Part shown: piece by piece, positions 381-64,000 of the stretch | Layout of the letters: every line of letters begins with the position of its first letter | Position numbering within the stretch: position 1 is the first letter of the stretch | Assembly (NCBI GenBank): GCA_951406725.2 | Contig: OX597819.1 | Coordinates: 92,008,001-92,072,000, forward strand | DNA length: 64,000 nt | Reading direction: 5' to 3' | DNA from: Octopus vulgaris | Lineage: Eukaryota | Translations under genes and position numbers: made by a program | Notes under the pieces: model-generated | What the model saw: only the letters and a program-made list of their open reading frames with translations | What the model was told of the DNA's origin: nothing | Databases searched by the model: none

Positions 381-538
381 AGGCGCTGCCGTGGTTGTGT
401 GATAAGAAGGTTGCTTACCAACCACATGCTTCCGCGTTAAGTCCCACTGCATGACATTTTGGGCAAGTATTTTCTACTCGGGCCAACCAAAGACTTGTGA
501 GTGGACTTGGTAGATGGAAACTGAAAGAAGTCTCTCGT
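381..538 (+). mobile_element. tRNA-derived SINE family 1, 5' module (head plus core-like segment)
   Basis: Pol III A-box-like GTGGTTGTGTGATAAG and B-box-like GTTAAGTCCC, then TTGGGCAAGT...GTGAGTGGACTTGGTAGATGGAAACTGAAAGAAG; about 10 copies in the window; ends in (TA)n. Confidence 0.8.
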
Positions 539-614
539 ATATATATATATATATATATATATATATATATATATATATATATATATATATATATATATAT
601 ATATATATGTATAT

Positions 615-868
615 ACTTTATTTAAAAGCAGCAGAAATATAACAAAAGCTGTTGCTCAGAGTTGCATGTTCCCGTTGTAAAGGTGTATCCTTTAACTAGT
701 TTTGAACATATTGTTATTTCTGTTCTATTTTACCAAAACTGTCCGACGAATGGGAACGTGAAACTCTGAGTAACAGCTTTTGTTATATTTCTTGTGCTTT
801 TTACTCTACATCTGGTATTTGAGTACTCTCTTTTTCTACCTTGTTTCACATTTATGTGCTTACTCCGG
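615..868 (+). mobile_element. Penelope-like pLTR fragment with inverted partial copy, inside (TA)n
   Basis: 625-676 is the reverse complement of ~750-801; contains a hammerhead motif; flanked by (TA)n on both sides. Confidence 0.6.
739..776 (+). ncRNA. Minimal type I hammerhead ribozyme motif
   Basis: CTGT-CCGACGA-ATG(GGAA)CGT-GAAA-CTCTGAG-TA-ACAG; stems I, II and III pair; core has C at position 4. Confidence 0.65.
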
Positions 869-1179
869 TATATATATATATATATATATATATATATATA
901 TATATATATATATATATATATATATATATATATATATATATATATATATATATAAATATATATATACCGGAGTAAGCACACACACACACACACACACACA
1001 CACACACACACACATATATATATATATATATATATGTGTGTGTGTGTGTATAAAAATATCATCTTCCAATTTGTATCGTACAATACACATTTCGACGCTT
1101 CTTATAAAAATCAAATGTCTATCTGTTTACATTTATACATGCATGGTTGATATATATATATATATATATATATATATCA

Positions 1180-1420
1180 TTATAACATATAAGAGGTAAC
1201 AACCATAGGAAACCTAGCACGCTAGAAGTAATAGCCAAAATCCAAACCACCATTAGGGATAACTATCAAAGGGAATGAAAAATAAAAACATCTACCATCT
1301 ATCTCCTGGACCATGGTTTCTAGCTCTATATTAGCAAATAAAATAATTTGCCAGTCGAAGCTTTCATCAACAAAAAACTGCGCTTGCGCAGTGGATTTGA
1401 AAAATTATAATGCATAAGCA
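1180..1420 (-). mobile_element. PLE pLTR-like repeat (copy 1; copy 2 at 19810-20070)
   Basis: Reverse-complement similarity to 19870-20060; hammerhead motif; abuts (TA)n. Confidence 0.6.
1302..1377 (-). ncRNA. Type I hammerhead ribozyme motif
   Basis: Minus strand TTTTTTG-TTGATGA-a-AGCTT...GAGCT-a-GAAA-CCATGG-TC-CAGGAGA; palindromic stem III; GUC site. Confidence 0.6.
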
Positions 1421-1469
1421 CGGGGCACATGCTGGATAGCCTCGTATCTATATGTTTAATCTTGGCGAG

Positions 1470-1655
1470 AAGTTACCTTCTCAAGTCATACCGACTCATA
1501 AGGTTTCATTCCCCACCTGGATGGGTCGCTGGTCCGTCGCAGGGTTACTCATTTTTGCCAGCTGAGTGGACAGGAATAAACGTGAAATGAAGTCTTTTGC
1601 TCAAGAACACAACGCGTCGCCCGGCCCAGGAGCCGAAACCAAAATCTTATAGATA
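1470..1655 (-). mobile_element. tRNA-derived SINE family 4
   Basis: Reverse complement of the 32238-32480 family (GACGCGTTGTGTTCTTGAGCAAAA...CACTCAGCTGGCAAAAATGAGT). Confidence 0.7.
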
Positions 1656-1769
1656 ATAGCAGTAACGGAAGCAAGCAGAACAGGAGGGATATAGAAAACA
1701 AGAGAGAAATGTAGAGGAAGAGAGTGAGAAGGTCGCAAATAACCAACAAGTTAATATCTTTTATGTTTT

Positions 1770-2100
1770 ACCTTTTACTTGTTTCGGTCATTTGACTACG
1801 GCCATGCTGGGTCACTGCTTTGAAGGGTTTTAGTCGAACAAATCGACCCCAGGACTTATTTTTGTTGTTATTGTAGTTATTGCAAAACATGCTGACGTCA
1901 ATACCAGAACAACTGTCAGGTATCTTCACAAATTTGGCTACTATGGCAGAACAGCAAGAAGGAAACTACTTCTTCAACCCGCAAATATGAAGCGGTGAAA
2001 TGATCGAGCCCGTGATAGTAGAGAGGTCACTAGCATTTTGGGATACTGTCTTTTGCCGAACAGCTACGTTATGGGAACGTAAATAAACCAACACCAGCTG
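1770..2100 (-). mobile_element. SINE family 1 3' module, interrupted by a Tc1 fragment
   Basis: TTTTACTTGTTTCGGTCATTTGACT...CGACCCCAGGACTTATT (1773-1860) resumes at CTTTTGCCGAAC (~2050-2100). Confidence 0.6.
1880..2045 (+). pseudogene. Tc1-like transposase fragment (second HTH region)
   Basis: Translates DVNTRTTVRYLHKFGYYGRTARRKLLLQPANMKR*, resembling the Tc1 pattern RTVRRRLH..G...R.ARKKPLL. Confidence 0.65.
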
Positions 2101-2104
2101 ACAT

Positions 2105-2410
2105 ACAAGAAGTAAATAGACACCCCATAAAACATCGTTTTATGTTTATTTTAACTTGAAAGGTTTATATAGGTTTTTATTAATTGATATTTTTATGTTT
2201 CCGGTTCTATATGTGACTGTTTAATCATACCACGTACAAAAGAAGCCTTGGAACTGTCCGGATTTCAAAGAGGCCATATTGTGGGCCAATCTGAAGACGG
2301 ACTTAGCCAACGTAAAATCGCAGAAAACATTGGGATCCCACTTCCTGCAGTTAATAGAGTGATTGTGCAATTCACCAGGGAGGGGAAGGAGTCTACCAGA
2401 TCCACCCATC
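2105..2410 (+). pseudogene. Tc1-like transposase N-terminal HTH fragment with upstream sequence
   Basis: [41 protein letters not shown] resembles Tc1 N-termini (ELSDFERG.IVG....G.S.REIA). Confidence 0.7.
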
Positions 2411-61577: not shown

Positions 61578-61762
61578 ATGATGATGATGATGATGATGAT
61601 GATGATGATGATGATGACAACGGACGACGACGACAATGATGTTAATGATGATGATGTTGATGATGATAATGATGATAATGCTACTGCTGTTGATGATGTT
61701 GATGATGATGATGATGATGATGATGATGATGATGATGATGATGATGATGATGAAGATGATGA
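61578..61762. repeat. (GAT)n microsatellite
   Basis: Direct reading. Confidence 0.95.
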
Positions 61763-62089
61763 GGACGAAGTATCGACCGGAATTATTCACCATCTTGAGA
61801 AAAAGAGGGGCTAATTGGGTTAGTAAAAACCTGACGAAATTTTGAAGTGCGTTCAACAAATAAAAGTACCGAATCATAAAAAAAAGTACACCTTGCTCTA
61901 TATAAAACAGTAGCCATTTAAATTAATGATCGGAGTCCTTCTATGTCGTAAAAATAAATAAATAAACAAATCGAGCACAACAGAAGCGGAAATATGCATA
62001 ATTCATCGAGAATGTTTCTTAAAGTATTTTGCTAAGAAAGAATAACTTCCATTTTTGAAAATGTTATTGTAATCGCTTTCTTTTCTTTC

Positions 62090-62545
62090 GAAGGCATGGG
62101 TGTGTGGTTAAGAAGGCCGTTTTGCCACCGAGTAGTTTCAGGCTCAGTCCCACTGCGCAGCACCTTGGACGAATGTCTTCTACTGTAGCCCCAAAGCCGA
62201 CCGACGCCTTGTGATGGAATTTGTAAGACGGAAACTGTGCAAAACCTCTTGCACACTCACACACACACATACACAAACACACATGCACACACACAACGCA
62301 CATAAATATGCGTAAAATATTCAAATGTGTACGTGTGTAGATGGGTAAGTCGGTGTGTTTGTGTTTGTGCGTGAGTGCGTGTGTACCTGGGTGTGTATAT
62401 GAGTGCGTGTGAGACTGTATGTGTGTGTGTGTGTGTGTGGTAGAAATGTCCCTCTCACCTCATGACAAACGGTATTGGTTTATATACGACCCCATATCTT
62501 ACGATCCAGCAAAAGAGACCGAGAGAATAGTCATCAAAGTGTTAC
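62090..62545 (+). mobile_element. SINE family 1 bipartite copy, diverged
   Basis: Head 62090-62240; partial 3' module 62450-62545. Confidence 0.65.
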
Positions 62546-62554
62546 AAAGAAGTC

Positions 62555-63200
62555 ATAAGGCAGCGGATTCCAAGCCCAAGGTCACATCATAGAAATCTAC
62601 CGTCTTCAGGTTGATTTCTATTGTGATCTTCAGGCCAAGAGAATTCAGGTTGTGGAGAAGATCCTTTCTAAGTCTATCAAGTGTGTGGCTGTTCGTCCCT
62701 CTCGATATTGACAAAGCATCTTCTCCATAAAGGTTAAATCTAGTAGAAGGGAATTTCTTATTAAGTAAGTACAGGATGTAAAAAATCAGAAACAAGGTCA
62801 CACACATCAGCGCTGTCGAATGCTCCCATCGCTACGTTGAGAAAGCCCTCTGCTGAACTGTAGGGTTTCTCTGCCTTACATGATAATGTGCATGTTATCT
62901 CCTACCACAGTTTAGGATCCAGCGAAACCAGTGTCTTATACAATAGTTTCCTCGATACAAACAGGCAAAACTTTGGTAAACCCTGCTCTACATATATCCC
63001 TTTTGGTTTTAAACCATATAATGACCTATCTGTTGTTGCGTTAAAGGGTGAGGCATCCTAATGTTGTAGCCGCCGTATTTTTTCCAGACCAACGATCTCT
63101 GAAAGGAACAAGGCGTTACTTAATTACACTGTTATCAAATATCCGGTTATTTGTTATCCAATGCAAAACTGATTACCAAGAGTGGCTGGGAAGGATTTAC
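62555..63200 (-). pseudogene. Penelope-like element reverse transcriptase fragment (Neptune-like)
   Basis: Across frameshifts: VNPS...WKNT...IIWFK...NVAMGAFDSADVCDLV...YILYLL...NLYGEDAL (decayed GLYRDD)...DRLRKDL...LGLKITIEINLKTVDFYDVTL. Confidence 0.8.
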
Positions 63201-63291
63201 TATATATATATATATATATATATATATATATATATATTTAGTGTAGGAAGAAATGGAGCTGAACGAAGATTTAACAAAATTCCTTTTTATT

Positions 63292-63377
63292 ATTTTCTAC
63301 ATATGTTTCAAAGGCTGCAAAGTCCCTAATTCGGATTGAATAAGGAGTCCATTTTGCAGCCTTCTCTTCGGGAAAAT
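63292..63377 (-). ncRNA. Type I hammerhead, left arm (core CCGAAGA)
   Basis: Mirror of 63532-63617 with a U4-to-C change. Confidence 0.7.
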
Positions 63378-63531
63378 CCAAGAACTTAATTCTCCAACAA
63401 AATGCACAGCAAGCTTTTCGACAAACGCTCACGAGGAGCCCATGGAATAAATGGCCATTTATTCCATGGGATCCTCGTGAGCGTTTGTCGAAAAGCTTGC
63501 TGTGCATTTTGTTGGAGAATTAAGTTCCTGG

Positions 63532-63617
63532 ATTTTCCTGAAGAGAAGGCTGCAAAATGGACTCCTTATTCAATCCGAATTAGGGACTTTGCAGCCTTTG
63601 AAACATATGTAGAAAAT
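63532..63617 (+). ncRNA. Type I hammerhead ribozyme, canonical core
   Basis: ATTTTC-CTGAAGA-GAAGGCTGCAAA...TTTGCAGCCTTT-GAAA-CATATG-TA-GAAAAT; 6-bp stem I, 12-bp stem II, palindromic stem III, GUA site. Confidence 0.85.
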
Positions 63618-64000
63618 AATAAAAAGGAATTTTGTTAAATCTTCGTTCAGCTCCATTTCTTCCTACACTAAATATATAAAACTTCAAATTTCCGCACTAA
63701 GGCACGGATTTTAGGCCCCATGGTCGTAACCTCAACCGTGCTTTTTCTGTTGTGATTTTTGCTACCCAGGTGTCGGTTATCACTTGAATAATCCGTAATA
63801 AGATAATTCATTTATCTACTTCAATATATATATATATATATATGTACGTATGTATATATGTATGTATATATGTATGTATGCGTGCATGCGTGCATGTATG
63901 TGGGTATATGTATATATATGTATCTCCCCCCTCTTTCTCTCTCTCTCTCTCTATATATATATATATATATAATGTTTTAGTATATAAAGTAGTTATGTGA

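Follow-up and report, generated by a model that had tools for sequence, protein, structure and literature searches.

Insertion sites of retroelements

Do unrelated retroelements in this part of the Octopus vulgaris genome end in simple repeats because each lineage inserts into a motif of its own, and do the families divide the motifs among them? The 64-kb window, i.e. the whole stretch of DNA analysed, holds over 20 microsatellite junctions of retroelements (Table 1). A sequence-only reading had seen a guild with motifs partitioned as safe-harbour landing sites. Element ends were set via BLAST and by eye. A flank was scored as microsatellite when at least 12 nt of a 2-4-nt unit with at most one mismatch lay no more than 6 nt from the junction; (ATT)n and (TAA)n were one motif class (AAT). 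By this rule 16% of window positions have an upstream microsatellite. We counted 189 arrays, many of them empty of elements.

Table 1. Positions, strands and flanks of the elements in the window
Element	Position	Strand	Flanks and remarks
Tx1-A copy 1, 5'-truncated	12527..13682	+	(TATC)n at both junctions
Tx1-A copy 2, RT and zf-RVT	14081..16178	+	(TATC)n at both junctions; one frameshift, one stop
Tx1-A copy 3, 5'-truncated	25070..26154	+	(TATC)n at both junctions
Tx1-B, decayed	39822..42217	+	(ATT)n at both junctions
(ATT)n stack: truncated SINE3, 550-bp element, Tx1-B, SINE2, 550-bp element	39087..43060	+	(ATT)n between each
550-bp non-coding element copy 1	39210..39763	+ (inferred from invariant end)	in (ATT)n
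550-bp element copy 2, same stack	42512..43031	+	in (ATT)n; 86% identical
SINE2, tail like 3' end of Tx1-like relatives	42234..42444	+	in (ATT)n; E 0.002
SINE2, 5'-truncated	53934..54053	-	(ATT)n on both sides; last six bases those of Tx1-B; E 0.004
SINE2	30800..31016	+	outside any microsatellite; 23-bp target-site duplication, 2 mismatches
three nested SINE2 copies	9172..9679	+	outside microsatellites; first with 20-bp duplication, second ends like Tx1-A
R4a, R4/Dong-like 3' remnant, internally deleted	6991..7639	+	(TAA)26 at 3' end; 5' (GAT)22, then degenerate (TAA)9
R4b copy 1	19522..19803	-	3' (CATA)n running into internal position of SINE1; 5' abuts Penelope-like piece
R4b copy 2	24200..24782	-	(CATA)4 at 5' junction; expanded internal (CATA)n; E 1e-22
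palindromic piece, degenerate hammerhead	616..868	+	between (TA)n arrays, left array after SINE1 5' half
two Penelope-like pieces (picked by eye), stacked at SINE1 3' end	33824..34295	.	in (TA)n; homologue 36790-37012
hammerhead-bearing piece	46882..47345	+	no passing microsatellite at either end; homologue 49995-50120 abuts (TA)n
homologue of piece at 60655	48497..48765	-	(CATA)n on both sides
degenerate-hammerhead piece at SINE1 3' end	60655..60846	-	(TA)n on both sides
Penelope-like RT remnant	62535..63199	-	(TA)n at 5' end; nearest homologue with Hydra-clade motifs
palindromic Penelope-like terminal repeat	63238..63671	.	canonical type I hammerhead per strand; (TA)19 left, short TA right

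Family and motif were associated across the 23 microsatellite-bearing 5' junctions with a permutation p of 5e-5. The association persisted both with the (ATT)n stack and one Tx1-A copy collapsed (19 junctions, p 1e-4) and under a local null for Tx1-A (about 3e-4, see below). Several retroelement families sit in simple repeats far more than by chance, and the link of family to motif is real. Random insertion with copies persisting in repeat-rich, low-constraint patches, be it by passive accumulation or chance, predicts no motif sorting and is thus highly improbable as a general account, yet the 16% background fits SINE1 (4 of its 12 true 5' ends next to a microsatellite of whatever kind, p 0.11) and SINE3/4 (1/6), and passive accumulation has been proposed for Drosophila Waldo (PMC3812793). 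The Kojima threshold for a microsatellite-specific family, the target motif in >20% of flanks (PMC4494074), was exceeded on tiny samples by Tx1-A (3/3), the 550-bp element (2/2), Penelope-like pieces (12/17 loci) and SINE2 (2/9).

Tx1-A and Tx1-B

All three copies of Tx1-A, as had been claimed, are bounded by (TATC)n on both sides. The copies are 1-2% apart and each is 5'-truncated at a different point. Copy 1 differs from the distant copy 3 at 7 of 728 positions (0.96%) and from its neighbour, copy 2, at 15 of 728 (2.1%), and is therefore no local duplication. With a plus-strand background of 1.7% for (TATC)n, three of three 5' junctions in this motif gave a p of 4.9e-6 (strand-corrected), or 1.2e-3 conditional on the site being some microsatellite; with copies 1 and 2 taken as one locus the values were 2.9e-4 and 0.011. 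Local (TATC)n frequencies within ±3 kb were 0.061, 0.125 and 0.045 (product about 3e-4). The 3' junction is identical in the three copies and the 5' phase is the same to within one base. Five of the ten (TATC)n loci are without Tx1-A, and the Tx1 terminal motif is absent at all five. Because three different 5' truncations abut the array and empty arrays exist elsewhere, we concluded that Tx1-A inserted into pre-existing (TATC)n.

The reverse order, in which arrays arose after insertion via slippage of tails and short target-site duplications so that the elements made the repeats, has a general basis, as retroelements are well known sources of microsatellites (PMC3812793). Yet the 5' arrays of three Tx1-A copies, truncated at different points and only 1-2% diverged, cannot stem from a tail, and five (TATC)n loci are empty while 42 of 57 TA loci lack a Penelope-like end. 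We regard post-insertion origin as quite improbable for the pattern as a whole.

The single copy of Tx1-B lies in (ATT)n on both sides, in agreement with the earlier claim. It shares 65% nucleotide identity with Tx1-A and 68% amino acid identity across 119 residues, and in a tree of 25 rows both grouped with P0001-P0003, apart from the other relatives (98/93). By these comparisons Tx1-A and Tx1-B are sister lineages. Both show a non-LTR reverse transcriptase (RVT_1, E 1.6e-21 in Tx1-A copy 2 and 5.5e-9 in Tx1-B), after which comes a zinc knuckle at the C terminus (zf-RVT, with sub-threshold E values of 0.02 and 0.01). Homologues of Tx1-A copy 2 have an APE-RT-zf-RVT architecture; the N-terminal APE is present in relatives at 53-59% identity, all window copies being 5'-truncated. 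From their architecture we take the two lineages to be probable members of the Tx1 clade. Relatives with 53-55% identity in the RT lie head to tail in arrays whose junctions are devoid of microsatellites; thus the microsatellite habit varies within the lineage.

The (ATT)n stack and SINE2

Within one 4-kb (ATT)n stack we found four insertions of three families, namely Tx1-B, both copies of the 550-bp element and one SINE2. (ATT)n flanks each 550-bp copy on both sides, which bears out the two of two counted before. The element showed no protein match, no LINE-like tail, no Pol III B box and no 5' HDV-like fold. It thus bore none of the marks of a SINE or R4 derivative that were looked for (Pol III head, LINE-like tail, HDV-like ribozyme).

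SINE2 had been described as often in (ATT)n. It is there in excess (p 0.001; 1 of 8 without the stack copy, p 0.04), but 'often' overstates two of nine copies, the other seven lying outside microsatellites. Target-site duplications of 20 and 23 bp, starting with short AT-rich words, were present in two of six copies checked; the score of 17 for the 23-bp duplication is the 99th percentile of 300 random pairs. A tail profile made solely from the 3' ends of nine Tx1-like loci gave eight hits in the window, among which SINE2 tails ranked first, second, third and fifth (E 0.002, 0.004, 0.014 and 0.14). The same profile missed the 3' ends of Tx1-A and Tx1-B. With reciprocal profile hits (E 0.002-0.02) the SINE2 tail resembles Tx1-like 3' ends at the sequence level. 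SINE2 likely shares the (ATT)n site because of this homology. A B-box pattern matched SINE3 and SINE4 and missed SINE1 and SINE2, and an ARAGORN search for a tRNA-type head found none.

R4a and R4b

R4a, a sample of one, matched RLE-type homologues weakly in pairwise comparison (E 8e-5 and 2e-5) and nothing in a database search. Its proposed place next to (TAA)n applies to the 3' side, with (TAA)26, but not to the 5' junction. Neither R4a nor R4b, which uses CATA, shows the (TAA)n on both sides typical of R4/Dong. For R4b, the second RLE family, two copies in (CATA)n had been listed; our rule was passed at two of four junctions, the 3' one in copy 1 and the 5' one in copy 2, but not at the other two, and one 5' junction is informative (p about 0.03). 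Both copies contain an internal CATA tract. Just the last 60-90 residues of these RLE remnants are kept, and there is no RT in either family; CCHC finger and PD..D restriction-like endonuclease motifs were seen in the homologues P0158, P0144 and P0177.

No (AAT)n locus in the window is free of adjoining repeat elements, and hence none is a clearly empty site that would show the AAT motif to have come first. In addition, the internal CATA tract of R4b is expanded in one copy, and the AT-rich starts of SINE2 duplications could seed ATT runs. A post-insertion origin is plausible for the AAT and ACAT classes.

Penelope-like pieces

Penelope-like ends lie at (TA)n in 17 of 34 cases against a background of 3.9%, in a set of which half was chosen by eye, partly for lying between TA arrays. 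The pieces selected for their hammerhead score, an RT or BLAST homology gave 8 of 16 ends (6/8 loci) and those picked by eye 9 of 18 (6/9 loci). Thus, of the claim that hammerhead-bearing pieces lie mostly in (TA)n, the (TA)n link stands with 12 of 17 loci; one piece, though, is in (CATA)n. Canonical hammerheads occur solely at 63538(+)/63371(-) and 47240(+), the rest being degenerate, and Rfam reported no hammerhead at gathering score. The nearest homologue of the RT remnant is P0182 (46% identity), a single homologue with DKT, CxCX5C and CxxC/CxH, which the window remnant lacks. Likewise, the Hydra-clade set of DKT, RWK-like motif, CxCX5C and C-terminal GIY-YIG without CCHH was seen in P0182, not in the remnant. 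A type I hammerhead in the terminal repeat, as in the Hydra clade, is present twice in the palindrome, which is tied to the adjacent RT remnant by position only; (TA)n insertion is a further Hydra-clade feature found here.

SINE1 and the sharing of motifs

SINE1, the commonest SINE, was missed in the earlier microsatellite list. (TA)n lies at 3 of its 12 true 5' ends (p 0.01); since SINE1 itself lands in (TA)n, the flanking TA may predate it. Repeats adjoining SINE1 host three Penelope-like pieces and one R4b copy. However, of the 189 arrays 18 fall in SINE1 spans, which make up 8.8% of the window; this is no excess, and SINE1-associated TA arrays show no significantly higher occupancy (3/7 vs 12/50 elsewhere, p 0.36). 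A feedback loop of SINE-borne repeats seeding targets has three nested cases to its credit but is not supported.

The motif partition fared no better. There are four classes rather than five, and (TATC)n is the sole one with a single user family. AAT is common to Tx1-B, the 550-bp element, SINE2 and R4a, AT to Penelope-like pieces and SINE1, and ACAT to R4b and one Penelope-like piece. Since sites are unsaturated, with 15 of 57 TA arrays touching a Penelope-like end, nothing points to competition. That families divide motifs as safe-harbour niches fed by SINE-borne repeats is very improbable in our view: three of four classes are shared, three families sit in one array and arrays are mostly empty, although the family-motif association is strong, the sister Tx1 lineages differ in motif and R4a and the Tx1-B group occupy opposite strands of AAT. 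Safe harbour as such is the standard published rationale for microsatellite insertion (PMC4640811). The pattern likely adds up from the habits of the single lineages in a genome very rich in microsatellites, with no division among competitors.

Discussion

The data support the view that several retroelement lineages, unrelated to each other, inserted into microsatellites that were already there; Tx1-A shows this best. We think it probable that each lineage's own integration machinery prefers a motif and that short non-coding elements inherit the preference of their mover. By analogy with Tx1L, Kibi/Koshi, Dong and Hydra, an endonuclease would nick the motif on one strand, and target-primed reverse transcription would begin at a fixed RNA 3' end, which would give all Tx1-A copies the same orientation in the array and the same end base. 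APE would serve Tx1-A (TATC) and Tx1-B (ATT), RLE R4a (TAA) and R4b (CATA), and GIY-YIG the Penelope-like pieces (TA). SINE2, in turn, would move by means of a Tx1-type enzyme whose loose preference is for short AT-rich sites, and (ATT)n is dense in these. Each insertion would leave array on both sides, so that arrays survive, are reused and give rise to stacks.

Regarding the three nuclease classes proposed before, RLE is present in the window as C-terminal stubs only, while the 64 kb contain neither an APE domain nor a GIY-YIG part; thus we infer the three classes from homologues. The window has no endonuclease domain of Tx1 or Penelope, and the specificity of the enzymes is presumed from known systems. 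Tx1L endonuclease shows target-specific nicking in vitro (PMC1950540), Dong targets (TAA)n in insects, molluscs and cnidarians (PMC7998251, PMC3812793) and nearly all Hydra-clade families insert in (TA)n (PMC8557442).

Alternatively, the RNA might pick the site, with a read-through 3' repeat pairing with its own motif in nicked DNA, so that a family relands like its source copy. Pairing of RNA tail and target has been described for L1/Alu (PMC3812793), all four Tx1 copies are without a poly(A) run between the terminal AATAAA-like signal and the array, sister lineages at 68% RT identity have different motifs and R4b holds its own motif inside its 3' region. On the other hand, SINE2 duplications in non-repeat DNA indicate insertion without a long matching array, tandem-array relatives end without any repeat and the Tx1L endonuclease is itself specific (PMC1950540). 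We consider such choice by the RNA unlikely. A bolder version, that two cephalopod sister Tx1 lineages switched motif, (TATC)n vs (ATT)n, with the choice inherited via read-through RNA-tail repeats and not the nuclease, and that Tx1-tailed SINEs and the 550-bp element use the same route and rebuild arrays, is a little more doubtful still.

The placement in microsatellites likely reflects sequence-specific insertion, a habit already known. Published cases of such targeting, with several families in one genome, cover Tx1, R4/Dong and Hydra-clade Penelope elements (PMC4494074, PMC7998251, PMC8557442, PMC3812793). The Tx1-clade families Kibi (TC)n and Koshi (TTC)n and the crocodilian (TTCC)n/(TTTC)n families are APE-type and microsatellite-specific, as we propose here; close lineages with different motifs and SINEs sharing the target of a Tx1 partner (SINEU) recur among these families (PMC4494074). 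Unlike the Tx1-clade lists given there, the motifs in the window are (TATC)n and (ATT)n; the likeness lies in habit. R4a resembles Dong in an RLE-type C terminus followed by sense-strand (TAA)n and differs in its (GAT)n 5' junction, while the motif of R4b, (CATA)n, appears in the lists of these sources solely for R1-clade Waldo (ACAY) (PMC7998251, PMC3812793). The Penelope-like pieces share hammerheads, inverted terminal structures, (TA)n insertion and a nearest homologue with DKT and CxCX5C with the Hydra clade, but the window holds an RT remnant and terminal pieces only, one of them in (CATA)n (PMC8557442). The same guild picture is known from Anopheles gambiae, with Waldo (ACAY), Mino (AC) and Dong (TAA), and from pufferfish with Kibi and Koshi; the density here is far higher and includes Penelope-like and non-autonomous members (PMC3812793). 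In the published literature searched we found no (TATC)n-targeting Tx1, no (ATT)n sister lineage and no SINE tail homologous to Tx1-like 3' ends; these are additions to an already published phenomenon.

Octopod genomes are rich in microsatellites and active retroelements. The Octopus vulgaris repeat annotation reports recently active Dong-R4, L1-Tx1, Hero, Penelope and SINE families, and its main text is without the word 'target' and any target-site discussion (PMC13282606). The determinants of target choice were called poorly understood in a review, which also notes that microsatellite-specific elements give birth to microsatellites (PMC3812793); the young (TATC)n Tx1 and its (ATT)n sister are a natural pair for the question of nuclease or RNA tail. 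If inheritance through the RNA tail were true, retroelements would be among the drivers of the microsatellite motif spectrum in octopods. In practice, octopod markers built on (TATC)n, (ATT)n or (TA)n may often have repetitive flanks.

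Junctions, null model and strand bias

Repeat families were defined by self-BLAST plus inspection of all 64 kb of the window, which has a G+C content of ~35% and of which 24% was masked as tandem repeat. Flanking motifs were called by a single rule for every junction, and every third window position served as background. The 5' repeat of a truncated copy is target-derived, whereas a 3' repeat is possibly the element's own tail; thus the 5' junction was the decisive test. Because TATC lies on the plus strand at each of the ten (TATC)n loci, a both-strand null was dropped and the null was recomputed by strand and locally. 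The bias of (TATC)n (10 loci plus versus 0 minus, p 0.002) is accompanied by one of (AC)n (17 versus 3, p 0.003), while (CATA)n and (AAT)n show none in the window. Strand bias is also present among empty arrays and is possibly caused by a large intron or a replication bias. Rfam in E-value mode returned only microsatellite-driven miRNA noise among the best 150 of 204 hits in the window, and a single weak tRNA match in gathering mode.

Positions of elements and other repeats in the window
Feature	Position	Remarks
Tx1-A	12527-13682, 14081-16178, 25070-26154	
Tx1-B	39822-42217	
550-bp element	39210-39763, 42512-43031	
SINE2, 5'-truncated	53934-54053	
SINE1	17250-17638, 47948-48366, 52190-52562, 60212-60634, 62090-62535	bipartite
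Older tandem duplication	12231-12300, 13715-13790	each unit a short piece of unique DNA plus (TATG)n and (TATC)n; 7/57 differences
Degenerate hammerhead-bearing unit	20800-21338, 21600-22137, 50428-50800	tandem pair and distant copy, 79% and 68% alike
Canonical hammerheads	63538/63371, 47240	
Inverted duplications near (TA)n	37038-37110, 49494-49894, 50215-50290	
Transposase remnants, decayed	2200-2500, 51500-52100	from translation; presumably Tc1/mariner-like
tRNA-like sequence	59857-59928	Rfam, just over cut-off; no ARAGORN call; may be a pseudogene or the head of a SINE
Unclassified repeat	48950-49060, 22472-22593	first copy continues into a 210-bp (TAA)n array, 49273-49482

Of the inverted duplications, that at 37038-37110 is a SINE 3' end facing its mirror image across (TA)n, that at 49494-49894 a 320-bp, 88% inverted repeat flanked by (TAA)n and (TA)n, and that at 50215-50290 a short palindrome next to (TA)n. 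A Pfam scan of one piece of the transposase pair gave no match.

Tx1-A in existing (TATC)n arrays

The sequence-only reading had placed all three copies of Tx1-A, a probably APE-type LINE remnant, in (TATC)n, and this was borne out at the 5' junctions too. The copies lie on the plus strand, differ pairwise at 7/728, 15/728 and 14/730 bases, and are all cut at different 5' points. All three end at an identical last base before (TATC)n without poly(A), and all three have (TATC)n in nearly identical phase at the 5' junction. This excess has a p of 4.9e-6 by strand, about 3e-4 under the local null and 1.2e-3 conditional on a microsatellite site; with the neighbouring copies 1 and 2 counted once, p is 2.9e-4, or 0.011. 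Five of the ten (TATC)n loci in the window are empty. Taken together, 5' (TATC)n at differing truncations and the empty arrays are good evidence that Tx1-A inserted into already existing arrays. Tandem duplication as the source of copies 1 and 2 was rejected, with a shared flank differing at 7/57 positions and copy 1 nearer to copy 3; each copy later entered one unit of an older duplication. Three of the 120 listed RT homologues of Tx1-A bear species names; the most similar of them is from Argonauta hians (68%), followed by Acanthosepion pharaonis (55%) and a fish (39%).

Insertions at AAT repeats

(ATT)n and (TAA)n are the same duplex motif. As had been read from the sequence, the single copy of Tx1-B and both copies of the 550-bp element have AAT on both sides; these three and one SINE2 flanked likewise all lie within a single stack (39087-43060). 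Tx1-B is 68% alike to Tx1-A in amino acids and falls into one group with it in the RT tree, from which the homologous proteins P0004 and P0102 are absent. A further, 5'-truncated SINE2 outside the stack also has AAT on both sides. Yet SINE2 cannot be said to sit often in (ATT)n: only 2/9 copies do, the other seven lacking AAT flanks, and 2/6 copies examined have target-site duplications of 20-23 bp of ordinary AT-rich DNA. The R4/Dong-like remnant R4a adjoins (TAA)26 at its 3' end, in agreement with the proposed site, but (GAT)22 at its 5' end. The window holds no clearly empty AAT locus, so that in this class either the array or the element may have come first.

A database search with R4a gave no match among 12 candidates; Mollusca were commonest among the Atlas look-alikes of two non-Tx1 remnants. 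Together with the named homologues of Tx1-A, these look-alikes make an octopod the likely host of this animal DNA. In the 550-bp element, neither a head nor a tail, ORF or ribozyme could be recognised. An HDV-like ribozyme scan gave one match, located elsewhere and null-like, significant 3' hairpins were absent, and neither the bacterial genome contigs nor the 182 fetched proteins matched it.

A likely Tx1-type partner for SINE2

Of the 74 loci that a scan of bacterial genome contigs yielded, 66 belong to a single assembly (CAXXMW01; L001-L062, L065, L068-L070). The latter are intact two-ORF Tx1-like elements with an ORF2 of about 1160 aa, belonging to several subfamilies and filling contigs of up to 94 kb in head-to-tail arrays with a 6.4-6.8 kb period. 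These contigs, filed under bacterial genome, are likely host DNA. No microsatellite was present at the 59 CAXXMW01 junctions read (37 distinct). Two distant relatives (35-36% RT identity), in records likewise filed as bacterial, end at 5S rRNA gene matches (L064:4422-4534, L066:2726-2844), one containing an A run, and adjoin or interrupt these genes. The relatives without microsatellite junctions and the two at 5S rRNA genes argue that targets change within this Tx1-like lineage.

A profile made solely of nine 3' ends from these Tx1-like loci had eight matches in the window, of which SINE2 tails ranked 1st, 2nd, 3rd and 5th (E 0.002-0.14). The reverse profile of the SINE2 tail matched 3' ends in 8/14 loci given, four with E <0.02. 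One SINE2 copy ends like Tx1-A, another in the last six bases of Tx1-B. Judged by this likeness of tails, SINE2 is likely mobilised by a Tx1-type partner, which would explain the common (ATT)n site and make SINE2 no independent guild member. A point against this link is that the Tx1-like profile did not pick up the 3' ends of Tx1-A or Tx1-B themselves.

R4b and Penelope-like pieces

The placement of R4b, the second RLE family, in (CATA)n is suggestive only: (CATA)4 stands at its one informative 5' junction, against a background of about 3%, and each of the two copies has a CATA tract inside it. R4b homologues contain CCHC and PD..D motifs, and a solved structure was not found for one of them, P0158.

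Hammerhead-bearing Penelope-like pieces had been described as mostly in (TA)n. Half of the ends do adjoin it (8/16 in an objective set, 9/18 in a set picked by eye), but one piece is flanked by (CATA)n instead. Hammerhead candidates scoring at least 5 numbered four in the window versus 0-1 in six shuffles. The Penelope-like RT remnant had a single homologue, carrying diagnostic motifs of the Hydra clade, in which, according to PMC8557442, nearly all families insert in (TA)n.

Association without partition

Family and motif are associated among the 23 microsatellite-bearing 5' junctions (p 5e-5), also without Tx1-A (p 1.5e-4) and after collapsing (p 1e-4). This core of the proposed guild holds, whereas a partition of motifs is not supported: TATC is the sole motif with a single user family, all others being common to several, and TA sites are unsaturated, with 15/57 loci touching a Penelope-like end. 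The further proposal that SINE-borne repeats seed new targets found nothing in its favour in the window beyond anecdotes. SINE1 spans, hand-drawn and generous, cover 8.8% of the window and contain 18/189 arrays; occupancy of TA loci was 3/7 when SINE1-associated versus 12/50 otherwise (p 0.36), and SINE1 itself landed in (TA)n in 3/12 cases. Such a feedback loop is possible. The SINE1 halves are separated by a TA/TG-rich tract of highly variable length and are often found singly. The original observation is partly confirmed and its interpretation partly supported.

Relation to known targets and proposed mechanism

Among published work, PMC4494074 covers Kibi, Koshi, crocodilian Tx1 and SINEU, PMC7998251 molluscan Dong in (TAA)n, PMC4640811 HERO and Togen in (TG)n, PMC1950540 target-specific nicking in vitro by the Tx1L endonuclease, and PMC13282606 the recently active Dong-R4, L1-Tx1, Hero, Penelope and SINE families of Octopus vulgaris. 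PMC3812793 reports that A. gambiae harbours Waldo, Mino and Dong and that retroelements give rise to microsatellites. The available portions of PMC4758252, PMC4824008, PMC3747384 and bioRxiv 10.64898/2026.07.22.740005 do not mention these targets. In the literature searched, we met no Tx1 element targeting (TATC)n or (ATT)n, no RLE element targeting (CATA)n and no Tx1-type tail on a cephalopod SINE. These negatives are weak, covering neither Repbase and most subscription papers nor the supplements of PMC4494074, in which Figure 3 and S5 give further Tx1 targets; an earlier record of (TATC)n or (ATT)n Tx1 targets may exist.

The pattern is most likely explained by lineage-specific endonuclease motif preference together with target-primed reverse transcription, all enzymatic steps being inferred; APE or GIY-YIG sequence was not found in the window. 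The chief competing explanation is pairing of the RNA tail with the target motif, which may also play a part. Under endonuclease preference, the choice of motif would reside in each lineage's own enzyme, target-primed reverse transcription would set orientation and the 3' end, and non-autonomous elements would take over the target of their partner. Multicopy targets are regarded as a survival strategy in PMC4640811; here, the array left on either side of an insertion would allow reuse by later insertions.
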